Assembly (NCBI GenBank): GCA_050945835.1
Contig: JBMNTR010000001.1
Location: forward strand, 9,384 to 73,383
Direction: 5' to 3'
DNA: 64,000 nt
Origin: Christensenellales bacterium
GTDB taxonomy: Bacteria > Bacillota > Clostridia > Christensenellales > JBMNTQ01
The notes beneath the pieces were generated by a model. The model was not told where the DNA came from. It did not search any database and saw nothing but the letters and a program-made list of their open reading frames with translations. This document shows, piece by piece, positions 1 to 23,825 of this stretch (position 1 is its first letter; each line of letters begins with the position of its first letter). The position numbers and the translations under genes are program-made.

Positions 1-1100
1 ATGCCGGCGAAATAGCTACTGTTCCGAAGAGAGGGAAATATGATATTTTCGATAACACTTTGGTGAGAGAGCAGTGAATCCGGATGTGCAATATGCTCTA
101 ATAAGCTGATGCCGGCATTATAAGCGTCTTCAGGGTTGTTTTTGATTCGTTTATTTTCAACTTTTACCACCACATTGCTTTTGCTGTTTGGACGAAATAT
201 CTGATCCAAAACAGCACTGGACCAAGCATACTCTAAATCGATTATGCCAACAATTTCACCAGGATAAAGTTCAATTTGCAGGGATAAGCTATTGTGGTCT
301 ATGCATATATTGTCAGCTCTCAACAGAGGAGTTTTGCGGCTATACATTTTCCCGTCGACATTTTCAAGCTCCTCACTATCACTTTGTGTTGTCAGACAGG
401 ACATGATATTTTGCCTAGAGAACTCATCCCTCTCAAGTGTTTTGATTGTATATCCGGAACGAATCACTGTAATACGGTCACACATTTGCTGGAGAATTTG
501 TATATTGTTAGATATGATAATCATCGCCATGCCGCGAGACTGAAGTATTTTCAGAATGTCGGAAAACTGTCGACGTTCGGCTTCAGAAAATCGATCAATG
601 AAACTATCGAATACCAGCAGACGCGCACCTGCGTGCAGCGCCTTGCATATCGCCACCACGCTGCGCTCAAAACGTGTTAAAGCAGCAATAGTATTTGAAG
701 CGTCTATCCGGCCGGGCAGAAGATCATCGAGCATCTTTTGACCCTTTTCTCTCACTTTTCGGTGGTTTATCAAGAAAGTGTGTTTTTTGTGGGAATGAAA
801 CACCAACAGGTTTTCAGCCGCACTCAGATTTTCAATAAGTGTATCCTCTGCAAGAATATCATAGATGCCATGCCAAAGGCCGGTATCCGTGGGCATATCC
901 GGATATGGGGCATGTAGAATTTTTCCCGCCTGAGGAGGCAGGGTACCCATTAAAATCCGCTGAACGATAAATTCTGCGTCCTTTGGTATGCCTAGCAAAC
1001 CCAATATTTCACCCGCGCAAACATGAAAGTTAAGGTCTCGAAATATATCCTGCTCCCCATCGCGGATATTAACATGTATAAAACGTAAAACTTCTTGCAT
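1..1100 (-). CDS. RbsA/MglA-like tandem ABC nucleotide-binding protein with all catalytic motifs degenerate (pseudo-ATPase). The C-terminus runs off the window.
   Basis: It is absent from the ORF track because it has no in-window stop. My hand translation of the minus strand from ATG 1100-1098 stays open to nt 3 (366 aa, MQEVLRFIHVNIRDGEQDIFRDLNFHVCAGEILGLLGIPKDAEF...). The start overlaps the kinase stop (TAATG). It aligns without gaps to the intact ATPase at 3887. Walker A GENGAGKST becomes GIPKDAEFI. Signature LSVAQCQ becomes LTRFERS. Walker B MDEPTS becomes FDSFID. H-loop ISHK becomes ISNN. Second Walker A GLVGAGRSE becomes DLEYAWSSA. Confidence 0.75.
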   Translation of the reverse strand, partial: MQEVLRFIHVNIRDGEQDIFRDLNFHVCAGEILGLLGIPKDAEFIVQRILMGTLPPQAGKILHAPYPDMPTDTGLWHGIYDILAEDTLIENLSAAENLLVFHSHKKHTFLINHRKVREKGQKMLDDLLPGRIDASNTIAALTRFERSVVAICKALHAGARLLVFDSFIDRFSEAERRQFSDILKILQSRGMAMIIISNNIQILQQMCDRITVIRSGYTIKTLERDEFSRQNIMSCLTTQSDSEELENVDGKMYSRKTPLLRADNICIDHNSLSLQIELYPGEIVGIIDLEYAWSSAVLDQIFRPNSKSNVVVKVENKRIKNNPEDAYNAGISLLEHIAHPDSLLSHQSVIENIIFPSLRNSSYFAG

Positions 1101-2080
1101 TATCGTTTATCCTCCATGGAAGTGAGCATATCAAGGTTATCGACAAGCGGCAATATCACCTCAATATCTGTTCCCATAGCGGGTGTGCTGTAGGCGCAAA
1201 TCCCATAAGATTCTCCAAAAGTGAGCCGTATGCGCTGGTTTACATTTGTGAGCGCAAGTCCTCCATTTTGGTGGTGCATCATTTCTATATAAGAGGAGGG
1301 TTGCATAGGAGATTTTTGCAGTTTTATATTAAGCTTTTGCAAGTCTTCTGCCGACATTCCGACTCCATTGTCACTGATCCGGATAATAAGCTGCTGACCG
1401 GAAGAATACACTCTTATGGTGATCACACCACCATGTAGCTTTGTTTCCAAACCATGAAAAACAGCATTTTCGACAATAGGCTGAATCGTCATTCTCGGAA
1501 CATAATACTTAACCAGACTGTCATCTTCAATTTTTTTTAACACGGTAAATCTGTTTTCAAATCGAAACCTTTGGAGCATTAGATAGTGATCGGCATTGCG
1601 TAGTTCCTCATGAAGTTGAACGAAATTTCCTGTTTGACTAATGCTGTATCGAAACATCATGGACAAGGCCTCTGCCATATCCGCTACAGTTGGTGTGTCA
1701 TCCATTAATGCCTGACCGCGTATGGAATCTAGGGTGTTGTATAAAAAATGAGGGTTGATTTGGCTTTGCAAAGCTTCAATGTGGATTTGTTTTTGGAGGA
1801 TTTCTTCAGAATAACGTTTTTGTGATGAAAAGTCGGCAATATCCAATAGTTTATTAGTTTTAAACAACAGACTTTTCCTGCGATGCTCTGGCAAGGTACG
1901 GTCAATCATCCGGTTCATCTGAACCAGTTGATTAAGCATGAAAACACCCAATATACTCCCTCCCAGGACGAGGGCACCGATCAAAAAATGCCATAAGAAG
2001 CCCGTAGTCCAATAGATAGCAATAGCTCCTAAGGAGGCAATCAGTAAAATAAGAGCAATAAGGAAAACAAACAGAAACAC
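1100..2080 (-). CDS. YesM/LytS-family sensor histidine kinase, short intramembrane type with no extracytoplasmic or HAMP domain
   Basis: 326-aa ORF. Two N-terminal hydrophobic helices are separated by only about 3-4 residues (…AIAIYWTTGFLWHFLIG…). It has the His_kinase motif QINPHFLYNTLDSIRG and a HATPase region (IRISDNGVGM … GGLALTNVNQRI). Confidence 0.85.
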   Translation of the reverse strand: MFLFVFLIALILLIASLGAIAIYWTTGFLWHFLIGALVLGGSILGVFMLNQLVQMNRMIDRTLPEHRRKSLLFKTNKLLDIADFSSQKRYSEEILQKQIHIEALQSQINPHFLYNTLDSIRGQALMDDTPTVADMAEALSMMFRYSISQTGNFVQLHEELRNADHYLMLQRFRFENRFTVLKKIEDDSLVKYYVPRMTIQPIVENAVFHGLETKLHGGVITIRVYSSGQQLIIRISDNGVGMSAEDLQKLNIKLQKSPMQPSSYIEMMHHQNGGLALTNVNQRIRLTFGESYGICAYSTPAMGTDIEVILPLVDNLDMLTSMEDKR

Positions 2081-2092
2081 TATACAAGTCTC

Positions 2093-3697
2093 CTATAATT
2101 TTCGATATTTACCTGGTGAAATCGCATAGGTTCTTTTGAACAACTTACTAAAATATCGATAATCGTTATATCCAATCATTTCAGATATCTGTTCGATCGA
2201 AAAAATAGTGTCTCGCAGCAAACGTTTTGCCTGACGCATACGTAAGGATGTCAAGTAGTCTGAAAAATTCTCCCCCATCTCTTTCTTGAATACCGAGGAA
2301 AAATAAGATGGTGACATCCCGGCAACCATAGCAGCATCCTCAAGTGTGATAGATTGTGTGTAATGCTCTTCCATATATGCGGCAGCCTTTCGTATCGGCC
2401 GAGTGTGTTGCTGGCGCAGATACTCCATGGCGGGCTCCACCCAATTCAGAAAGGCATTGATAAAAGTTGAAATAAATTGAGGTACGGATATAGCGTTGTC
2501 AATTGCTTCATAGATCGATGAAATGTCTGATAATCCACTCATGATCTCATCTGTTTCTGGATAACCTTGCTGCACACTGATTATAATGTCTTGATAACGC
2601 TCATACATGGACTCTAGATTGTCTTCATTTTTTGTTGCGAACATATATTCGTCAAACAGCTGTTGTAACAGCAAGCGCAGCGACGATTTTTCTCCGTGCT
2701 CAACAGCATTTAATAACTCAATGCGCTCGCTATTCTGTAAGGTTCCCGTGGCTTGCTGTTCCGCCGGCAGCAGGGCGCTGTCCACAATATGGTTAGCGCT
2801 CCCCAGCAAACGATAAAGAGAAGCCCGTTGTGCCAGCTGAATAGTACGCCCGAGACAATTTGGTTCTGAGGCTTCCGAACCAAGGCAAATCGTGAAGGTG
2901 TAGGTATCATAACGGTCGGCCACTCTAGATAGTTGTTCGACAAATATATCAAAGGTACGTTCCGAAGAGTTGCATTGGAAAAGACAATACAATCTGGAAT
3001 AAATGGTGATAATTTCAAAATCGGAGCAGCAATATTTGCTAGCTCGTTTTAGAACCTGAACCATTTTGTCCAGCACAAACGGACGCATGGAAAGATTCTC
3101 AATTTTCAAACAGTCTACTTTGACAATGAATAAGCCCAAAGGGCGCTCTTCAAAATGGTATTGATAGTCGATGTTTAGCCTGCTTAAGGTAATATCTTTT
3201 AAGTTTACCTCATTGCTTAAAAGACCATAAATGAACTGTTGACGCGGTAAGGATGCCGGCCGATTGTTTTCTGATTGATTTACAGATACATGTTCGGATT
3301 CAGACATCAACTGTAGTTCACCATGAATGCGAATCAGCGATGCACTCAGCTCATCTGCATTGATAGGCTTGAGCAGATAGTCTGTTGCACCGAAACGAAT
3401 GGCACTCTTTGCGTATTCAAATTCTTTGTATCCGCTGATCATAATGAAGCGCATATGGTGCTCGTTGTTTTGGAGTTTTTTCACAAGTTCCAGGCCGGTC
3501 ATAGCAGGCATGCGAATATCTGTGATAATGACATCAGGTTTGTCTCGCAGAGCGATTTCATACGCTTGCAAACCATTATGGGCGAATCCGATGACCGTAA
3601 AACCCAATGCATTCCAATCTATCAGCTTCACAATCAGTTCACATATTTTTTTCTCATCATCTGCAATTAAGACGCGCAGTTTTCTCTGCATGGTCAA
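2093..3697 (-). CDS. YesN-type response regulator (REC plus AraC-family HTH)
   Basis: 534 aa. N-terminal receiver (RVLIADDE…DVIITDIRMPAMTG…KP). C-terminal AraC HTH (AGMSPSYFSSVFKKEMGENFSDYL…IGYNDYRYFSKLFKRTYAISPGKYR). It lies 12 nt upstream of the kinase gene. Confidence 0.9.
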   Translation of the reverse strand: MTMQRKLRVLIADDEKKICELIVKLIDWNALGFTVIGFAHNGLQAYEIALRDKPDVIITDIRMPAMTGLELVKKLQNNEHHMRFIMISGYKEFEYAKSAIRFGATDYLLKPINADELSASLIRIHGELQLMSESEHVSVNQSENNRPASLPRQQFIYGLLSNEVNLKDITLSRLNIDYQYHFEERPLGLFIVKVDCLKIENLSMRPFVLDKMVQVLKRASKYCCSDFEIITIYSRLYCLFQCNSSERTFDIFVEQLSRVADRYDTYTFTICLGSEASEPNCLGRTIQLAQRASLYRLLGSANHIVDSALLPAEQQATGTLQNSERIELLNAVEHGEKSSLRLLLQQLFDEYMFATKNEDNLESMYERYQDIIISVQQGYPETDEIMSGLSDISSIYEAIDNAISVPQFISTFINAFLNWVEPAMEYLRQQHTRPIRKAAAYMEEHYTQSITLEDAAMVAGMSPSYFSSVFKKEMGENFSDYLTSLRMRQAKRLLRDTIFSIEQISEMIGYNDYRYFSKLFKRTYAISPGKYRKL

Positions 3698-3718
3698 ACT
3701 CTCTTAGCGTTTTATTTA

Positions 3719-3747
3719 AGCATATCGAATCGACTGGAGCATGTCAA
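3719..3747 (-). promoter_or_regulatory. Candidate sigma-70-type promoter of the regulator-kinase operon
   Basis: The minus strand reads TTGACA-17 nt-TATGCT (-35 at 3747-3742, -10 at 3724-3719), about 20 nt upstream of the RBS and ATG at 3697. Confidence 0.55.
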
Positions 3748-3750
3748 TGA

Positions 3751-3795
3751 AATTTGTGCATTATATTTTGTAAATCGTAAAATAATGCACAAATT
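3751..3795. promoter_or_regulatory. Perfect 14-bp inverted repeat (candidate operator) in the divergent intergenic region
   Basis: AATTTGTGCATTAT (3751-3764) and ATAATGCACAAATT (3782-3795) are exact reverse complements separated by 17 nt. The repeat sits just upstream of the -35 of the regulator-operon promoter. Confidence 0.5.
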
Positions 3796-3886
3796 CATAA
3801 GATTAGCGGCTGTTATTCAAGCCAGTATCTTCTATAATTATTATATATTCCTGAATTAAACCAATAGAGACTGAAGGAGGTGTGAA

Positions 3887-5392
3887 GTGAGCGATTATGT
3901 GCTGGAGATGAAAAATATCTCCAAGACCTTCCCTGGTGTAAAGGCGCTGGACAATGTTTCTTTGGCGGTCAAGCCAGGAGAAGTCCACGCTGTCATGGGA
4001 GAGAATGGTGCAGGCAAATCGACTCTTATGAAAATCATTATGGGCATTTATACCGCTGATTCCGGCGAAATGCTGGTTGAAGGCCAAACGATTGTCAATC
4101 GCAATCCCCAGGAGGCGATGGAAAATGGAATCGCCATGATACATCAGGAGTTGAATCCGGTTTTGGATATGCGGGTATACGAGAATATTTTCATGGGGCG
4201 CGAAATTAGAACCAAGTTTGGAACGTATGACAAAAAAATGATGATCGCTGAGACCAAACGTCTGTTGGAAGAGATTGAAATCGACATTCCTGCTACCTGT
4301 GTGATGCGTGGACTCAGCGTGGCGCAGTGCCAACTGATTGAGATCGTCAAAGCCATTTCAATTCATGCACGTATTGTAGTGATGGATGAGCCAACCTCTG
4401 CGATTACCGACAAGGAAATAGATATTCTTTTCAACCAAATCAATTCCCTGAAGGCCAAGGGCGTGGCCATCATTTATATTTCACACAAAATAGATGAAAT
4501 ATTTCGTATCAGCGACCGAATTAGCGTGTATCGCGATGGATGCTATATTGGAACCGACGAATCGGCTAATTTGGATCATAATCAGTTGATCAAAATGATG
4601 GTGGGCAGAGAGATAACGGATATCTATCCCAAAACAGAGTATCCGATTGGTGATGTCGTGATGGAAGTCAAGAACTTATCAATGGGAAATAAGGTGGATC
4701 ATGTCAGCTTTAAGCTGCACCAGGGGGAAATTCTTGGCATTGTCGGTCTCGTGGGCGCGGGGCGCAGCGAATTGGTTGAGACCATTTTCGGCGTGCGGAA
4801 AAAAACTGCCGGCAAAATCAGCATCCGCGGTAAAGTTTTTAACGGTAAGAATCCAGAAGACGGGATCAACGCGAAGATCGCACTGATAACGGAAGACCGC
4901 AAGCTAACAGGTTTGAATTTGGTGGCGAGTGTGAAGGAAAATATTACGCTTGCTTCATTAAGACGTGTTTCAACGGCTGGAGTGCTCAGCACCAAAGAAG
5001 AGACACATTACTCGGAAAAGTATATCGATGCATTGAAAATTAAGACATCATCAAAAGATACTTTGACGGGCTGTCTGTCCGGCGGCAACCAGCAAAAAGT
5101 TGTTCTGGCCAAGTGGCTGCTGACAGAGCCGGATATCATCATTATGGATGAACCAACAAGGGGAATTGACGTTGGTGCCAAACGCGACATCTATCTATTG
5201 ATGGGCGAATTTGCCAAGCAAGGAAAGGCAGTCATTATGATTTCGTCTGAAATTCCTGAAATTATGGGCGTCAGCGATCGTGTGATTGTAATGGCGGAAG
5301 GCAAGATTACAGGCGAATTAAAACGAAGTGAATTTTCACAGGAGCGGATCATGGAATTTGCATCCAACATAAAGGGGGGAGCGGCTTGCTGA
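3887..5392 (+). CDS. Sugar ABC transporter ATP-binding protein (RbsA/MglA type, two intact NBDs)
   Basis: 501 aa. GTG start 6 nt after GAAGGAGG. First NBD: GENGAGKST, LSVAQCQ, VVMDEPTS, ISHK. Second NBD: GLVGAGRSE, LSGGNQQK, IIMDEPTRGID. Confidence 0.9.
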   Translation: MSDYVLEMKNISKTFPGVKALDNVSLAVKPGEVHAVMGENGAGKSTLMKIIMGIYTADSGEMLVEGQTIVNRNPQEAMENGIAMIHQELNPVLDMRVYENIFMGREIRTKFGTYDKKMMIAETKRLLEEIEIDIPATCVMRGLSVAQCQLIEIVKAISIHARIVVMDEPTSAITDKEIDILFNQINSLKAKGVAIIYISHKIDEIFRISDRISVYRDGCYIGTDESANLDHNQLIKMMVGREITDIYPKTEYPIGDVVMEVKNLSMGNKVDHVSFKLHQGEILGIVGLVGAGRSELVETIFGVRKKTAGKISIRGKVFNGKNPEDGINAKIALITEDRKLTGLNLVASVKENITLASLRRVSTAGVLSTKEETHYSEKYIDALKIKTSSKDTLTGCLSGGNQQKVVLAKWLLTEPDIIIMDEPTRGIDVGAKRDIYLLMGEFAKQGKAVIMISSEIPEIMGVSDRVIVMAEGKITGELKRSEFSQERIMEFASNIKGGAAC

Positions 5393-6336
5393 GAAAAATA
5401 GATCGAAAAACACTGCTCAGAGAATTTGGAATCCTGTTCATATTTCTTCTTGTTATCATTATACTGTCCATCGTATCGCCCACATTTCGTCGTCCACTGA
5501 ACTTGCTCAACGTGCTCAAACAGGCATCCATAACTGGAATTCTTTCCTTTGGCATGATGCTTGTTGTCATATCGGGCGGCATAGATCTTTCGATGGGATC
5601 TGTTCTAGGTCTTTCCGGCGTAGTGGCGGCAACCTTTGCACACCCGGGAGAGTATCCCTTGATCATTCCCATTCTGGTAGCGCTTTTAGTGGGTGCTTTG
5701 TCTGGGTTTTGCAATGGCATTGGCGTTGCATATGGTGAATTGCCCCCCTTTATCATTACCTTGGGCACAATGAGTATTGCGCGGGGCTTGGCGTTGGTCA
5801 TAAGCGGCGGCGTTCCAGTTATCAATATATCGCCTGAGTTTGGCACTATTGCAGCTGATACATTGTTCGAGGTTCCGCTTCTCTCTTATTATCTGGTTAT
5901 CGTCGTAGTTATAAGCGCTTTCATTTTAAATAAAACAGTGTTTGGACGAAGAGTATACAGCATTGGCGGCAATATCGCTGCTGCCCGGGTATCAGGCATA
6001 AATGTGAAAAGAACACAGATTGGCGTATATATATTTGCAGGTTTAATGTCTGGTATCGGCGGCCTGCTCATGGCTTCCCGTACCACTCAAGGGGCTCCCA
6101 CTGCCGGTCTGAGCTACGAAATGGATGCTGTCACCGCGGTTGTTATTGGCGGTGTGAGTATGAGCGGCGGTGTTGGAAAGTGGCATGGCGTGCTGATCGG
6201 GGCGTTGTTTATTGCCGTCATTGAAAATGGTCTGACTATCTTTGGCATTGATCCCAACATGAAACAGGTAGTCAAGGGCGCCATTATTATTGCGGCCGTG
6301 TTGTTGGATGTGAAAACCAAAGGAAAACAGAACTGA
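5386..6336 (+). CDS. Sugar ABC transporter permease (RbsC/MglC family)
   Basis: 316 aa, polytopic and hydrophobic. It has family-typical segments (GGIDLSVGS-like GGIDLSMGS; ITLGTMSIARG). The start overlaps the ATPase stop. Confidence 0.85.
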   Translation: MLRKIDRKTLLREFGILFIFLLVIIILSIVSPTFRRPLNLLNVLKQASITGILSFGMMLVVISGGIDLSMGSVLGLSGVVAATFAHPGEYPLIIPILVALLVGALSGFCNGIGVAYGELPPFIITLGTMSIARGLALVISGGVPVINISPEFGTIAADTLFEVPLLSYYLVIVVVISAFILNKTVFGRRVYSIGGNIAAARVSGINVKRTQIGVYIFAGLMSGIGGLLMASRTTQGAPTAGLSYEMDAVTAVVIGGVSMSGGVGKWHGVLIGALFIAVIENGLTIFGIDPNMKQVVKGAIIIAAVLLDVKTKGKQN

Positions 6337-6388
6337 GCACTCATTGGGTTCTGTTCCAATATTAATCAAATTAGAAAAGGAGAAAAAG

Positions 6389-7444
6389 ATGAAGAAAAAA
6401 TCGTTTGCACTGATCATGGCATTGATACTGATGCTAGCCTTGTTCTTGACAGCATGCGGCACAGGCGCTGACAGCGGTTCGCCTGCTCCGACCGGGGAAC
6501 CAGAAGGTGTCGCATCACAACCGATTCCCGAAACAGAGGGAGAATCGGCCAGTCAAAGCAATGATGATGAGGGAACCGCTGATACCGAGGCTGGCGGTGC
6601 CAAGAAGTATGCTGTATTCATTTCTCAGAACACAAACGCATTTACTATGAGTGTCGGCGAATCGGCAAAGTCGCACGGTGAATCGCTGGGACACGAAGTC
6701 ACGCTCTTCGATGGCAAGGGTGACCAGAACACCCAAATCAGCCAAATTGAGACCTGTATTGCGCAGGGATATGACGGTTTGATTGTAGAACCTGTTTCTG
6801 GTGACGGCGCCATCCCGATCTTAACACAAGCAATGAACGAGAATATTCCGGTGGTCACCATTATTCAGGAGTTGAACGATCAAAGTATTGTCAATGCTTT
6901 TGTCGGCCCCGATCATTACGAAGCTTCCGTGATTGAAGCGGAGGCTGCTTTGGAAGCCATTGGCGGTAAGGGCAAAGTATGTATTTTGCGGGGGGCCCTT
7001 GGCTCCAGCGCTGAAATGCTGATCAACAACGCCTTCCATGACACCCTTGAAAAATATGCCGATGTTGAGGTCATTGAAGAGCAAAGCGCGAACTGGGTGA
7101 TTGACGAAGCCTTGAAAATCACCGAAACTTGGCTGCAGAAGCACAGCGATATTGCTGCAATTTTAGGTGAAAGCGATCAAATGTCTCTGGGCGCCATGAA
7201 AGCTTGTCAGGATATGGGCATTGACAACATCATCATTGTAGGACGTGATGCCCTGCCCGAGACTCTGGAAGCTATCCGAGATGGAGGCATCTATGCTACT
7301 GTATATCAAAACGGCCCGCAGATGGGTTCTATGGCGATTGATACCCTTGATACCATTCTTAGCGGTAAAACGGTAGAGCCTGTATTGGCAACTAAAAATG
7401 TTCTGGTTACAGTTGACAACATCGATACATTCGAAAACGAATAG
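6389..7444 (+). CDS. Sugar-binding lipoprotein (RbsB-like periplasmic binding protein)
   Basis: ATG at 6389 lies 7 nt after AAAGGAG. Signal peptide and lipobox (LFLTACG). A long acidic Gly/Ser/Pro/Glu linker is followed by a type-I PBP fold sequence (…VFISQNTNAF…IVGRDALPE…). Confidence 0.8.
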   Translation: MKKKSFALIMALILMLALFLTACGTGADSGSPAPTGEPEGVASQPIPETEGESASQSNDDEGTADTEAGGAKKYAVFISQNTNAFTMSVGESAKSHGESLGHEVTLFDGKGDQNTQISQIETCIAQGYDGLIVEPVSGDGAIPILTQAMNENIPVVTIIQELNDQSIVNAFVGPDHYEASVIEAEAALEAIGGKGKVCILRGALGSSAEMLINNAFHDTLEKYADVEVIEEQSANWVIDEALKITETWLQKHSDIAAILGESDQMSLGAMKACQDMGIDNIIIVGRDALPETLEAIRDGGIYATVYQNGPQMGSMAIDTLDTILSGKTVEPVLATKNVLVTVDNIDTFENE

Positions 7445-7614: not shown

Positions 7615-8928
7615 ATGAGATACGATAAAGGATCGTGGGGGAATTGGATCACAGAAGGCTGGACGATAGATCAGGCGGTGATGTCGGCAGAAGACAAGGC
7701 CATTTTGCGTGAACTGGCCAAACAGTTCAGACAGCTGTGTGCGCAGCCTCAAGAGGAAGAGAAAATCAGACTCTGGACGGCGCACAATGATCTTGAGGAT
7801 ACACGACCGTTGATTCTGGTAGATATGGAGCACGGATGGAATGAAGTGTTTACATTTGATCGGGACATGCAATGCAGCGGTTATATGGCACAGGACTGGG
7901 AAATGTGGCTGCGCAAAGAAATTTTTTACGCGACAAAGCTTCGCGATGATAAACCGCTTACACCGGTATTTTACCTACCGCACCGAGCCGTAAATACAGA
8001 GTGGGGCATCAATGAAGAGCAGATCGGCAACGAGGACAAAAGAAACGCCTATGCCTGGGAGCCGATCTTTCGCAGCAAAGATGAGGCCTTCGAAGCTTTC
8101 GATGTGGACAGCATTGAAGATCCGTATGTTGAAGTGGACTGGGAAGCGACCAACCGCTATTTTGAGATCGGTCAGGATGTTTTCGATGGTATTTTATCTG
8201 TAGAATTTCGCACCTGGTGGTTTTGGTCCTCCTCAATTGTGCATGCCTATGCCCATTATCGCGGCATCGATGGCATGATGATCGATTTTTATGATTACCC
8301 CGATCGGTTTCATGAAATGATGCAGAAGTTTGTCAATGGCTATATGGGCAAACTGAGATGGCTGGAGCAAAACGGCCTGCTGTATAACAACGCAGGAAAT
8401 TGCTTCGTAGGCTCGGGTGGCCTAGGCTTTACAAATCAGCTTCATCCCAACCCACAGCACGTGCTGCTCAAGGATATGTGGGGGTTGAATGAGGCACAAG
8501 AAGCCACTGGCATCTCGGGTGAAATATACGGCGAGTTTATTTTTCCTTACCACAAGCAGGTGGCCGAAATGTTTGGCTTCAATTGCCACGCATGCTGTGA
8601 ACAAATGGAGCCTCTATGGGAGTATGTGCAGAAAATTCCCCGTTTGAGACGGGTTTCCGTCTCCCAATGGACAAATATCGAGATGATGTCGGAGTTTTTG
8701 GGCCGAGATTATGTATACTCCTACAAAGCTTGTTCCTCAGACACGGCGTTGCCGCAAATGAACGAGGATGTGGTGCGCGGACGGTTACAGAAAATGTATC
8801 ATGTCACGAAAGACAATCATGTGGAAATTGTGCTGAAAGACTTGCACACCATTGGCAATAATCCTCAACAAATCTGCCGCTGGGTGGAGATTGCACGTGA
8901 AGAAATGCACAAAGTCTATGGTTCGTGA
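7615..8928 (+). CDS. Hypothetical cytoplasmic protein (possibly a URO-D/methyltransferase-like barrel; family not recognised with confidence)
   Basis: 437-aa ORF. ATG follows AGAGGAG. No TM segments or signal peptide. It has its own upstream and downstream terminators. The family call is only a weak impression. Confidence 0.5.
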   Translation: MRYDKGSWGNWITEGWTIDQAVMSAEDKAILRELAKQFRQLCAQPQEEEKIRLWTAHNDLEDTRPLILVDMEHGWNEVFTFDRDMQCSGYMAQDWEMWLRKEIFYATKLRDDKPLTPVFYLPHRAVNTEWGINEEQIGNEDKRNAYAWEPIFRSKDEAFEAFDVDSIEDPYVEVDWEATNRYFEIGQDVFDGILSVEFRTWWFWSSSIVHAYAHYRGIDGMMIDFYDYPDRFHEMMQKFVNGYMGKLRWLEQNGLLYNNAGNCFVGSGGLGFTNQLHPNPQHVLLKDMWGLNEAQEATGISGEIYGEFIFPYHKQVAEMFGFNCHACCEQMEPLWEYVQKIPRLRRVSVSQWTNIEMMSEFLGRDYVYSYKACSSDTALPQMNEDVVRGRLQKMYHVTKDNHVEIVLKDLHTIGNNPQQICRWVEIAREEMHKVYGS

Positions 8929-9067: not shown

Positions 9068-9143
9068 TGGTGGGCCATCAGGGATTCGAACCCGGGACGC
9101 CCTGATTAAGAGTCAGGTGCTCTACCAACTGAGCTAATGGCCC
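9068..9143 (-). tRNA. tRNA-Lys (anticodon CTT), CCA encoded
   Basis: The reverse complement is GGGCCATTAGCTCAGTTGGTAGAGCACCTGACTCTTAATCAGG…GGTTCGAATCCCTGATGGCCCACCA, with anticodon loop CTCTTAA. Confidence 0.9.
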
Positions 9144-9152
9144 CTATGAAAT

Positions 9153-9226
9153 TGGAGCGGGTGATGGGAATCGAACCCACGTAGCCAGCTTGGAAGGCTG
9201 GAACTCTACCATTGAGTTACACCCGC
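9153..9226 (-). tRNA. tRNA-Gly (anticodon TCC), CCA encoded
   Basis: The reverse complement is GCGGGTGTAACTCAATGGTAGAGTTCCAGCCTTCCAAGCTGG…GGTTCGATTCCCATCACCCGCTCCA. Confidence 0.9.
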
Positions 9227-9229
9227 GCT

Positions 9230-9304
9230 TGGAGCGGTAGACGAGATTCGAACTCGCGACATCCACCTTGGCAAGGTGGCACTCTACCACTGAGCTACTA
9301 CCGC
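9230..9304 (-). tRNA. tRNA-Gly (anticodon GCC), CCA encoded
   Basis: The reverse complement is GCGGTAGTAGCTCAGTGGTAGAGTGCCACCTTGCCAAGGTGG…AGTTCGAATCTCGTCTACCGCTCCA. Confidence 0.9.
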
Positions 9305-9313
9305 ACGTGATGG

Positions 9314-9396
9314 TGGTGCGGGCGAAGAGACTTGAACTCCCACACCGAAGTACCAGATCCTAAGTCTGGCGCGTCTGCCAATTCCGCCACGCCCGC
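9314..9396 (-). tRNA. tRNA-Leu (anticodon TAG), long variable arm, CCA encoded
   Basis: The reverse complement is GCGGGCGTGGCGGAATTGGCAGACGCGCCAGACTTAGGATCTGGTACTTCGGTGTGGGAGTTCAAGTCTCTTCGCCCGCACCA. Confidence 0.9.
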
Positions 9397-9520: not shown

Positions 9521-11647
9521 TTAGGTGCTCACAAGATCGTTGTACCATTTCACAGCCGCGACATAGCAATCGTTGATCAGCTCGCTGCTCAAGCGGTGTT
9601 CTTGGGCAAACCGGTTCACTTCCTCCCAGTTGGAATATTCATAATTGCTAAAAAGAGAGATCAAATCCGAATAGATGCCGTCCTTTTGGAGCAAGGATTC
9701 ATGAACTTCCTCGGCCACCGGAATTTCACTGAGCAGCTCTTCTTTGGTTTTATCCAGCGCGATATGCAAAAGTGAAAACATACCGATGAAAAAGGCATGC
9801 TTGGGATTGCGCTTGGGAATGAAATGCGGCGCCAAAAGCTCGGCAAATTGCGCGCGTATCAACGAGATGCGCATCAACTCCAATGGCGTATCGGAGGCCA
9901 GACCGCGCAGCGACAAAAGCGAGATCCATTTTTTTAATTTTTCTTCGCCTAAGTATGTGACGGCTGTGGAAATAGATGAGATTCGATAGCGTAAGCCAAG
10001 CGCCGCCGAGTTGAGCAGCCGCAGCAGCTTATAGGAAAGCACGACATCGGACGCGATGATATCGCTGATCTCTTTGAAATCCACATGCCCTTCCGCGCTG
10101 GAGAGCTGTAATAAGCGGTAATAATTTACATGCAAAGGGTCGAGATCTTTTGTCTTTTTGGTGATCACCGGCTGCTGGAAATAATAGCCCTGGAAGTAAC
10201 GGAAACCGCGGATCTGCGCGTTTTCGAAGTCTATGATGTTGTCCACGTTCGTCGCGACAAAACTGATTTTATCATATTGCTTGATGAGCATGTTTTGCTC
10301 CGGATATCCGATATGATCGTAATCGAATTTGACATAATGGGCCAGCGACAAAAGCGCCGGAGACGCATTTGTGCGGTTCAGGTCGCTGAATGCAAGCGAA
10401 TAGCCGCAGGCACGTAAAGTACGGTATAGCTGCAAATCTTTCCTTTTGCACCGCGTGGGCAGTTGAAACTGTATGACAAATTTATCTTTGGGCAGATTCA
10501 AGCGTACGGAAGGCGAGAGAAGCTGATGGGAATAGGAGATGAAATAGCGTGTGTCGTTCTCGATATCCTCCAAACCCAGTGCGTCCAGCGTGCGTTCGAA
10601 TTCAGTGAGCACAACGGAATTTCCATCATTCGCTTCTTTCTTGCCCTGATCGATGAGCTCATAGCCGAACACCTCGCCTTTTTCCTTCATGACCGGCTGT
10701 ATGTCGATATAGAGATCGTTGGGCTTTTTGGCTTTGTCATAATGCTCTTCAAAGAATGTGATGGTATTTCGCCCCATGCTCTTCGATTTATACAGAGCGA
10801 TATCGGCTTTGCGCAGCAGCTCGGAGGTGGTGGTGCCGTGTTCCGGAAAGACGGAGACACCCATGCTGATGGTGCAGGTCAGATCGATGATGGGCAGCGT
10901 GTATTCCTGCAGCGCGTTGCCCAATACCGTGTCATAATGCTCATAGAACGCCGTTTCGGTGGGAAACCGGCTGATTGGATCCGCATAGAAGAGCACAAAC
11001 TCATCGCCGCCCAGGCGGTACAGATGCCCATCGTAGACCGCATCCGCCGTGAGGTGGGCTGCCAGCTTTTGCAGCATGATATCGCCGGTATTATGACCAT
11101 AAGTATCGTTTATGATCTTGAAATTATCCAAATCAAACATCGCAACGATGCCGCGAGTCTGATTGTGGCCGATGGATTCCCGATGTTCTTCGAAATCTTC
11201 TTTAAATTTCTGGCGATTGGGGATGCCTGTCAGATGATCGGTATAGGCCAAGGTATAGAGCTTCTTTTCGGCGGCGCGTTCGCGGTCTATATTGCGCAGA
11301 CACATCACGGTGGCCGGCTTGCCGTCTGTCCATTCGATGATATCGCAGGAGGCGGAGTAGGCATGGCCTTGTATGTCCTCCACGTCGAAAGTGAGGGAGG
11401 TGCCGTCGTCCTGCAGAAAGGAATGCTGCGCCGGGCAGTATTGGCATAGATCCGAATAAAGAAGGGAATACCCGGATTTACAGCTGTGATGATCCAATCT
11501 GTTTTTTTCCTGATGATTTTGCGCGGATGTGTTTCTAAAGAGCGTTTCGCACCCGGGACGCATGACCAGTATGTCGATGTCCGGCATGTTGAGCAGATTA
11601 CCCAGCAGTGTATTGATTTTTTGTTTTCTTTTTTTGAAAAACGCCAT
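9521..11647 (-). CDS. Cyclic-di-GMP signalling protein: Cys-rich N-terminal domain, GGDEF, degenerate EAL-like domain, HDOD
   Basis: 708 aa. Intact GGDEF (YRLGGDEFVLFY). EAL-like segment (EVFGYELID…VKFDYD…ATNVDN…FQGYYFQQP). C-terminal HDOD (ISDIIASDVVLSYKLLRLLNSAALGL…TAVTYLGEEKLKKW). An in-frame TAA lies 5 codons upstream of the ATG. Confidence 0.85.
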   Translation of the reverse strand: MAFFKKRKQKINTLLGNLLNMPDIDILVMRPGCETLFRNTSAQNHQEKNRLDHHSCKSGYSLLYSDLCQYCPAQHSFLQDDGTSLTFDVEDIQGHAYSASCDIIEWTDGKPATVMCLRNIDRERAAEKKLYTLAYTDHLTGIPNRQKFKEDFEEHRESIGHNQTRGIVAMFDLDNFKIINDTYGHNTGDIMLQKLAAHLTADAVYDGHLYRLGGDEFVLFYADPISRFPTETAFYEHYDTVLGNALQEYTLPIIDLTCTISMGVSVFPEHGTTTSELLRKADIALYKSKSMGRNTITFFEEHYDKAKKPNDLYIDIQPVMKEKGEVFGYELIDQGKKEANDGNSVVLTEFERTLDALGLEDIENDTRYFISYSHQLLSPSVRLNLPKDKFVIQFQLPTRCKRKDLQLYRTLRACGYSLAFSDLNRTNASPALLSLAHYVKFDYDHIGYPEQNMLIKQYDKISFVATNVDNIIDFENAQIRGFRYFQGYYFQQPVITKKTKDLDPLHVNYYRLLQLSSAEGHVDFKEISDIIASDVVLSYKLLRLLNSAALGLRYRISSISTAVTYLGEEKLKKWISLLSLRGLASDTPLELMRISLIRAQFAELLAPHFIPKRNPKHAFFIGMFSLLHIALDKTKEELLSEIPVAEEVHESLLQKDGIYSDLISLFSNYEYSNWEEVNRFAQEHRLSSELINDCYVAAVKWYNDLVST

Positions 11648-23748: not shown

Positions 23749-23825
23749 TGGTAGCGGCGATGTGACTTGAACACATGACCTTTCGGGTATGAACCGAGCG
23801 CTCTAGCCAACTGAGCTACGCCGCC
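23749..23825 (-). tRNA. tRNA-Met (anticodon CAT); elongator, initiator or Ile2 identity not resolved
   Basis: The reverse complement is GGCGGCGTAGCTCAGTTGGCTAGAGCGCTCGGTTCATACCCGAAAGGTCATGTGTTCAAGTCACATCGCCGCTACCA. Confidence 0.85.

Follow-up and report, generated by a model that had tools for sequence, protein, structure and literature searches.

In a 64,000-nt stretch of a Christensenellales bacterium genome (GCA_050945835.1, contig JBMNTR010000001.1, positions 9,384-73,383, forward strand; hereafter the window), we analyzed a minus-strand operon encoding a YesN-type response regulator, a YesM/LytS-type histidine kinase without a sensor domain, and a degenerate homologue of tandem ATP-binding cassette (ABC) ATPases, which we term psiNBD for its two altered nucleotide-binding domains (NBDs). 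An intact CUT2 sugar importer is encoded on the opposite strand. We hold, with slightly better than even confidence, that this operon specifies a transporter-derived, non-transporting receptor, composed of a binding protein, a CUT2-type permease and psiNBD, that controls the two-component kinase. The genes of the locus in the window are as follows.

3697..2093, minus strand: YesN-type response regulator of 534 amino acids (aa; 532-534 aa), with Pfam matches to Response_reg and HTH_AraC/HTH_18
2080..1100, minus strand: sensor-less YesM/LytS-type histidine kinase, 326 aa, with Pfam matches to PF06580 His_kinase and HATPase_c only
1100..1, minus strand: pseudo-ATPase psiNBD, a tandem ABC nucleotide-binding homologue, N-terminal 366 of 479 aa, cut by the window edge
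3698..3886, no strand: divergent intergenic (promoter) region of 189 bp between the regulator operon and the transporter operon
3887..5392, plus strand: RbsA/MglA-type tandem ATPase of the CUT2 sugar ABC importer, with both Walker A motifs, both Walker B motifs and the NBD2 signature intact
5386..6336, plus strand: RbsC-like permease (BPD_transp_2 by Pfam) with the canonical coupling loop GGNIAAARVSGINV
6344..7444, plus strand: RbsB-like lipoprotein substrate-binding protein (Peripla_BP_4) with the lipobox LTAC

The regulator, kinase and psiNBD genes were tightly packed. The kinase stop and the psiNBD start overlapped as TAATG, with GGAGG located 10 nt upstream, and the importer genes at 3887..7444 were intact; the overlap and the intact importer had been reported in a preliminary description of this DNA and were found again. 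That description had also regarded psiNBD as truncated, which is true of the window, where its open reading frame (ORF) of 366 codons (1100..3) runs off the edge, and not of the natural protein. An exact-sequence look-up of the kinase led to L001 and L002, two contigs that carry these genes and extend further. On L001, psiNBD was complete at 479 aa and corresponded to P0001, annotated as a hypothetical protein of a Christensenellales metagenome-assembled genome (MAG). The near-identical contigs compared for the ratio of nonsynonymous to synonymous substitution (dN/dS) differed by only 0-1 substitutions per gene.

The psiNBD sequence was compared with that of the neighbouring RbsA-like ATPase. 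BLASTP revealed 22% identity with an E-value of 3e-19 and 23 gap positions in 352 columns, so that the alignment is not gap-free as first described. The motif losses that had been listed were all present in this alignment. In NBD1, Walker A changed from GENGAGKS to GIPKDAEF (K to E), the signature region from LSVAQ to LTRFE, Walker B from MDEPT to FDSFI (DS for DE) and the H-loop from SHK to SNN, and in NBD2, Walker A changed from GLVGAGRS to DLEYAWSS. Additionally, the Q-loop Gln of NBD1 was replaced by Ala, and the full-length protein on L001 had also lost the signature, Walker B and H-loop of NBD2. All ATP-site motifs were missing in both halves of four psiNBD orthologues. The protein shared the fold and full-length homology of RbsA, AraG and XylG, and it lacked the catalytic motifs that an RbsA/MglA-type ATPase carries in at least one site. 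Judged by its sequence, psiNBD is a homologue of ABC ATPases and not an ATPase.

The preliminary description had proposed profile and structure alignments to RbsA/MglA, and both placed psiNBD in this group. The NCBIfam model AraG matched residues 19-477 with an E-value of 1e-41, a match that falls far short of its cut-off, and no NCBIfam model passed its cut-off for psiNBD; the Pfam ABC_tran score was 18.1 bits against a cut-off of 25. A PDB sequence search revealed no solved relative at E<=1e-10. The AlphaFold2 (AF2) model built from the family alignment was a confident tandem NBD, with a predicted local distance difference test score (pLDDT) of 87.8 and a predicted TM-score (pTM) of 0.66. 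The best PDB matches of this model in Foldseek were all tandem-NBD ABC proteins, namely, methyl-coenzyme M reductase (MCR) component A2, Mycobacterium tuberculosis DppD/OppD and EttA. No extra domain was present, and the length of 479 aa compared with 501 aa for the RbsA type.

To follow the losses across the family, 44 family members were compared with 60 canonical CUT2 ATPases at positions conserved in at least 85% of the canonical set. Retention was 0-27% for the Walker B Glu and its adjacent Pro, the signature, the H-loop, the Q-loop Gln and the NBD2 Walker A. In particular, the Walker B Glu was retained in 2% (NBD1) and 9% (NBD2) of the members, the Gly-Gly of the NBD2 signature in 5% and 2%, the H-loop His in 16%, the Q-loop Gln in 25% and the NBD2 P-loop glycines in 7-27%. 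The NBD1 Walker A Lys and the NBD1 Walker B Asp were kept much more often (73% each). The scaffold glycines were retained in 93-98%, and the Asn after each Q-loop in 100% and 98%. From general knowledge of ABC structures, we take this Asn to open the helical subdomain that lines the permease-coupling groove, and the groove of psiNBD may still work.

The kinase consisted of a two-helix membrane hairpin, a linker of approximately 50 residues, a PF06580 DHp domain and an HATPase_c domain (Pfam E-values of 5e-25 for PF06580 and 2e-11 for HATPase_c). Its hydrophobic segments lay at approximately 1-30 and 26-53, and the AF2 model contained helices at 2-23 and 28-62, of which 2-23 and 28-50 form the hairpin. 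The turn between them comprised four residues, close to the three or so originally estimated. No Cache or HAMP match was found in the kinase even at E<=10, and the same search detected dCache_1 and HAMP in the long relative L022, which served as the positive control. The core of a YesM/LytS-type (PF06580) kinase was complete, with the NPHFLYN His box and HATPase_c N- and G-boxes; the catalytic H111 and the residues N205, D237, G239 and G241 were invariant across 21 relatives. The typical YesM input, an extracytoplasmic Cache-like domain between the transmembrane (TM) helices followed by HAMP, was absent. These features agree with the earlier view of a sensor-less enzyme, and a short protein with two TM helices, a minimal loop and no cytoplasmic sensor domain is what defines the intramembrane-sensing histidine kinases (Mascher 2006, as cited in PMC7828314), although classical members of that class have a DHp family other than PF06580. 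The closest 120 relatives, taken as the best 120 in a collection of 5.8 billion proteins, were all short (226-379 aa).

Two other groups of related kinases were observed. P0390 (632 aa) is a PF06580 kinase with a weak ABC_membrane (PF00664) match of 33 bits at residues 196-316 in its N-terminal membrane region, which may be another transporter-like input domain in the same kinase clade. P0393-P0429 formed a third PF06580 size class of approximately 440-490 aa (e.g., in Christensenella timonensis), with two TM helices approximately 100-130 residues apart and no Cache or HAMP match.

A survey of sensor-less YesM kinases for adjacent degenerate NBD genes, as had been suggested at the outset, revealed a strict association. 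Using one genome per species and a kinase alignment, we collected 80 PF06580 kinase loci chosen by similarity to the window kinase; kinases with the His box before residue 160 were defined as short, and those with an external domain of approximately 240 residues as long. A degenerate tandem NBD was present in all 12 informative loci with short kinases and in none of the 66 informative loci with long Cache/HAMP kinases (Fisher p = 2e-14). These degenerate NBDs contained neither Walker B nor the signature, and Walker A was absent or present only in NBD1. In 11 of these loci, the gene immediately followed that of the kinase; in the twelfth, it was located elsewhere in the cluster. In many of the long-kinase loci, a binding-protein gene overlapped the kinase stop instead, which is the known three-component arrangement (PMC10384115). 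One locus (L063, 1.9 kb) was uninformative, and L074, a candidate short kinase without a pseudo-ATPase, was excluded; a HAMP-like segment after its TM helix identified it as a mis-called or truncated long kinase.

The same pairing was found when short kinases were looked up directly, as the window kinase and three relatives all had a degenerate NBD (4/4). In these relatives, which were from an Acetivibrionales MAG, from a protein present in 132 sample blocks and from a Dorea phocaeensis protein present in 207 blocks, a regulator, a short kinase and a degenerate tandem NBD of 467-490 aa overlapping the kinase stop lay beside a complete CUT2 transporter. In the reverse direction, an exhaustive HMMER search with psiNBD revealed a graded series of relatives above the canonical background, and a motif screen showed that approximately 45 of the best 150 lacked Walker B. 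All six pseudo-ATPases that were looked up independently were beside or clustered with a short PF06580 kinase: P0298, P0250, P0247, P0343 and P0256 directly followed one, and P0299 was in the same cluster as one. The distance from the kinase stop to the pseudo-ATPase start was at most 35 nt in 18 of 19 loci, with overlap in 12, a number that may be inflated because ORFs of the scan loci were called and labelled in-house with a caller that takes the most upstream start. A complete transporter with binding protein, NBD and permease was present in every sufficiently long locus.

Two loci in these sets had peculiarities. L013 (JAISYW010000113.1), a 6.3-kb contig with regulator, short kinase and psiNBD, came from an MAG labelled Holosporaceae (Alphaproteobacteria) and is probably a mis-binned Clostridia contig. 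In a Dorea phocaeensis MAG (GCA_036551485.1, L007:5389-6988), the regulator was split into two ORFs; it was intact in a near-identical Human Microbiome Project (HMP) contig (L008:5387-6988), and the split is a frameshift or an assembly error.

The survey also bears on whether psiNBD is simply a functionless, decaying rbsA duplicate whose position after the kinase is accidental, a prospect that the preliminary description had raised against itself. The identity of only 22% to the canonical ATPase and the Pfam score below threshold would suit decay. Intact orthologues of 437-509 aa were, however, found in at least 20 divergent loci without frameshifts; they span Lachnospiraceae, Oscillospiraceae, Christensenellales and Acetivibrionales, and intact ORFs at 20-37% mutual identity across these four Clostridia groups rule out pseudogene decay. 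The conserved scaffold residues, the strict synteny with the kinase and the confident AF2 fold also contradict a decaying duplicate, which we regard as effectively refuted. The psiNBD gene is a conserved signalling partner.

Extending the locus leftwards, as had been recommended, revealed the gene hidden by the window edge. It encodes a second permease, TMD2, a BPD_transp_2 protein of 322 aa (L001:6845-7813) whose gene overlaps the psiNBD stop by 4 nt and which is 32% identical to the RbsC-like permease of the window. The full operon order is regulator, kinase, psiNBD and TMD2, divergent from the operon of the ATPase, permease and binding protein. The TMD2 paralogues were full length, and their canonical coupling loop GGNxxAARxSGINV was degraded, reading GNSRSAMETMAINV in the window genome; this decay is consistent with a divergence of the permease together with the pseudo-ATPase. 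Across the same three genomes, identity was 65-71% for the transporter proteins, 43-50% for the kinase, 36-39% for the regulator, 29-37% for psiNBD and 35-36% for TMD2, which indicates that the sensor module evolves much faster than the transporter, at about twice its rate when 29-37% is set against 65-71%.

We also found a natural fusion. P0298 is an 811-aa protein in which a degenerate tandem NBD is joined to a BPD_transp_2 permease, and its gene lies in the order regulator, kinase, fusion, binding protein, NBD and permease. This fusion is Rosetta-stone evidence that pseudo-ATPase and permease work as one unit. In another cluster (L092:2228-8324), a psiNBD (P0299) was followed by a binding protein, a permease, a regulator and a short kinase, and no working ATPase was present on its 9.6-kb contig; this cluster may be a complete stand-alone sensor transporter.

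Two architectures were present among the loci. In the first, psiNBD was followed by its own permease (the window genome, L003, L005, L014 and probably L012). In the second, psiNBD was followed by genes for the binding protein, NBD and only one permease, as seen in about ten loci, including those of Dorea, Blautia, Parablautia and Herbinix (one-permease loci L007, L009-L011, L015, L016 and L018-L020). In the one-permease loci, the pseudo-ATPase must either rely on the working permease or affect the kinase by itself.

The preliminary description had suggested that psiNBD may dock on the RbsC-like permease, or compete with the real ATPase, and relay transport status to the kinase. In this version, psiNBD would sit on the working RbsC in competition with the real ATPase and report occupancy or activity as a Bce-like sensor of need or flux, and a receptor complex of its own would not exist. 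The one-permease loci, the tandem architecture that still matches a permease dimer and the almost invariant Asn after each Q-loop are in keeping with it. This alternative nevertheless appears unlikely to us. A dedicated permease follows or is fused in the window genome, L003, L005, L014 and L089, its diverged coupling loop suggests a separate complex, and a protein without ATP sites cannot sense ATP-driven flux. The association with a permease that the description had proposed is supported by the P0298 fusion; the partner in the window genome is probably the dedicated TMD2, whose gene overlaps that of psiNBD and which is the most economical choice, and not the working RbsC. Competition with the real ATPase is not needed in the window genome and may occur in the roughly ten loci without a second permease. 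Read-out of flux as in Bce-type modules does not carry over directly, because a protein without an ATP site could not report it, and sensing of occupancy or docking is more plausible.

The receptor that we favour would operate as follows. The sugar would be recognized outside the cell by the lipoprotein binding protein of the neighbouring working transporter; no binding protein other than the RbsB-like one is encoded close to the sensor genes, and for this reason it likely serves the sensor as its ligand-recognition element too. The loaded binding protein would dock on a CUT2 permease dimer, which would be TMD2 where present and otherwise the working permease. On the cytoplasmic face of the TMD2 dimer would sit psiNBD, with its tandem ABC-NBD fold and its presumed inability to bind or hydrolyse ATP. 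In a working importer, the docked binding protein signals across the membrane to the NBDs and thereby sets off ATP hydrolysis; by this same signal, docking would shift the conformation of the permease/psiNBD complex. The kinase, which is anchored in the membrane and appears to have no input domain of its own, would read this change, probably through its cytoplasmic linker or DHp domain, and would phosphorylate the AraC-type regulator to turn on the divergent rbsACB-like transporter genes. For this scheme, we infer every protein-protein contact, the binding protein used, the direction of regulation and the target promoter.

The tight coupling of the kinase and psiNBD genes would also suit a different switch, in which psiNBD is an inhibitor or scaffold of the kinase that shuttles to the permease, and docking captures or releases it, thereby freeing or blocking the kinase. 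Precedents are the sequestration of MalT by idle MalK and the bridging of PstB and PhoR by PhoU (PMC9239213), and the permease association shown by the fusion would be expected here as well. We judge this switch to be quite improbable. The P0298 fusion, which tethers the pseudo-ATPase permanently to the membrane complex, speaks against shuttling, and computation does not separate the switch from the receptor model.

Some members of the family were less degenerate than psiNBD of the window. At L095:6001-9455, an orphan tandem NBD of 501 aa followed P0392, a long kinase with an external domain and with a catalytic core that ranks among those nearest to the short kinases. Walker A/B and the signature were intact in this NBD, and its N-terminus, KTEILRLSH, resembled that of psiNBD. 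The N-terminus of P0392 was considered as a permease::kinase fusion and rejected; P0392 is an ordinary two-TM kinase with an extracellular domain. A neighbour-joining (NJ) tree grouped the L095 NBD with the least degenerate pseudo-ATPases, which hints that the partnership between kinase and NBD predates the loss of catalysis. Together with the members that keep only the NBD1 P-loop, the L095 NBD suggests graded degeneration, and for some of the family, nucleotide binding may still be relevant. A first NJ tree separated 16 degenerate from 35 canonical NBDs cleanly; monophyly of the pseudo-ATPases was dropped, as the split was not clean after the less degenerate members and the L095 NBD were added, and long-branch effects are likely.

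Several observations weigh against the receptor model or narrow it. The relative orientation of the two NBD halves was uncertain in the AF2 model, as the pTM above indicates. About 10 of the 16 fuller loci (e.g., Dorea L007 and Parablautia L015) had no second permease, so the picture of a dedicated receptor is not general. Among the best 120 matches to a concatenated kinase and psiNBD query, there was no natural kinase::pseudo-ATPase fusion; query coverage was at most 39%, except for P0001 itself (60%), which matched the psiNBD half only. The hairpin and linker of the kinase contained no conserved column before residue 98 and no obvious conserved docking motif. Because of this, the kinase N-terminus looks like an anchor and not like a specific docking surface, which mildly favours a cytoplasmic contact of psiNBD with the linker or DHp domain. 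Finally, some family members keep the NBD1 Walker A, and the kinase-adjacent tandem NBD of L095 is fully intact.

The missing second permeases, the subclass with the NBD1 Walker A and the intact L095 NBD would also fit a psiNBD that senses a cytoplasmic ligand independently of any permease, whether an internal sugar, a sugar-phosphate or, in those that keep the NBD1 Walker A, a nucleotide. We find this very improbable for three reasons: the window psiNBD lacks the P-loop in both halves; no sugar-binding regulatory domain is known in RbsA-type NBDs, and psiNBD carries no additional domain; and a membrane complex is indicated by the permease fusion and by how often TMD2 genes occur.

The receptor model was compared with known systems in which a transporter informs a kinase. 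In the UhpC-UhpB system, the ligand-sensing partner of the kinase is a transporter paralogue whose main role is no longer uptake. UhpC is a major facilitator superfamily (MFS) protein that binds the ligand itself, whereas the psiNBD module descends from an ABC importer and has a pseudo-enzyme in the cytoplasm. In the PstSCAB-PhoU-PhoR system, a sensor-less kinase is informed by an ABC importer (PMC9239213, PMC13577022). As in the psiNBD module, a two-helix kinase without an external sensor obtains its signal from a binding-protein-dependent importer through a cytoplasmic adaptor on the ATPase side. However, the Pst transporter retains full activity, and its adaptor PhoU, which has no relationship to ABC proteins, binds the PAS domain of PhoR. 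In the psiNBD module, the adaptor is a dead ATPase paralogue, the PF06580 kinase has no PAS domain, and a spare permease is often present. Neither PhoU nor a PAS domain was found among the proteins of the locus, and Pst is an analogue only.

Bce-type modules, including the split BraDE-BraSR-VraDE and VirAB-VirRS-AnrAB systems (PMC3023708, PMC7828314, bioRxiv 10.1101/2020.02.28.969956), resemble the psiNBD module in that an intramembrane-type kinase needs an ABC transporter, and some of them have separate sensing and working paralogues, comparable with TMD2/psiNBD and RbsAC. Their transporters, in contrast, are FtsX-type and exporter-like; the permease (BceB) has a large extracellular loop, the ATPase (BceA) is active, and signalling depends on its hydrolysis of ATP. 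The kinases belong to the HisKA_3/BceS type and the regulators to the OmpR type, and the ligands are peptide antibiotics. The psiNBD module instead has a CUT2 importer paralogue, BPD_transp_2 permeases, a dead NBD, a PF06580 kinase and an AraC-type regulator, and the features that define a Bce module are lacking.

The three- and four-component sugar sensors, such as CuaD-CuaS-CuaR (PMC10384115, PMC5663094), LevQRST (PMC3043104) and XylFII-LytS-YesN (as cited in PMC8050422), share with the psiNBD module a PF06580 kinase, an AraC-type regulator, control of an adjacent sugar ABC or phosphotransferase system (PTS) transporter and the recruitment of a transporter component. They differ in that their kinase bears a large domain outside the cytoplasm and has a binding-protein paralogue of its own encoded next to it. 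In the locus, the kinase has neither an external domain nor HAMP, the gene beside it is that of the pseudo-ATPase, and the only binding protein nearby comes from the transporter operon. The theme of a transporter as co-sensor is known, and none of the systems compared (Pst, Bce, Uhp and the Cua/Xyl/Lev sensors) uses a catalytically dead NBD paralogue. No description of a dead NBD paired with a sensor-less kinase was found in the full-text literature outside subscription-only papers.

Other features of the window were also observed. The divergent intergenic region contained a 17-nt inverted repeat at 3751-3767 and 3779-3795 (AATTTGTGCATTATATT / AAAATAATGCACAAATT; 94% complementary, 11-nt spacer), for which we only infer a regulatory role and which may be an operator. 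An ORF of 437 aa at 7615-8928 (plus strand), which comes next after the binding-protein gene and is shared by contig L002, had no Pfam, NCBIfam or PDB sequence match; it may encode a new kind of sugar-processing enzyme that belongs to the same regulon. Four tRNA genes (Lys-CTT, Gly-TCC, Gly-GCC and Leu-TAG) were clustered at 9068-9396 (minus strand), and a lone tRNA-Met was located at 23749-23825 (minus strand). The minus strand at 9521-11647 encoded a 708-aa protein with GGDEF and HDOD domains; its N-terminal region was rich in Cys and His, and no sensor domain was recognised.

If the receptor model is true, the operon would be the first sugar-sensing two-component system with a pseudo-enzyme derived from an ABC importer as its input device. 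It would account for signal perception in a very large set of YesM-type kinases that look like orphans and are approximately 320-350 aa long without a sensor domain; individual short-kinase members were found in more than 100-200 metagenome sample blocks, including those of human-gut Dorea and Blautia. It would also represent a natural uncoupling of the transmembrane signalling of an ABC importer from ATP hydrolysis, which would help to dissect the transmission from binding-protein docking to the NBDs, and could provide sugar biosensor parts for synthetic biology. Entries of the psiNBD type annotated as "hypothetical" or as "sugar ABC transporter ATP-binding protein" should then not be counted as transport capacity. 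These results suggest that gut Clostridia turned a transporter into a receptor. In the broader form of this idea, to which we give somewhat less than even weight, non-transporting ABC-importer receptors, each with its binding protein, permease paralogue and tandem NBD dead in both halves, would be widespread in gut Clostridia. The signal that an importer sends from binding protein to NBD would have been redirected to switch a sensor-less kinase without ATP, and the graded degeneration, from fully intact through NBD1 P-loop only to fully dead, would record the passage from enzyme to adaptor.

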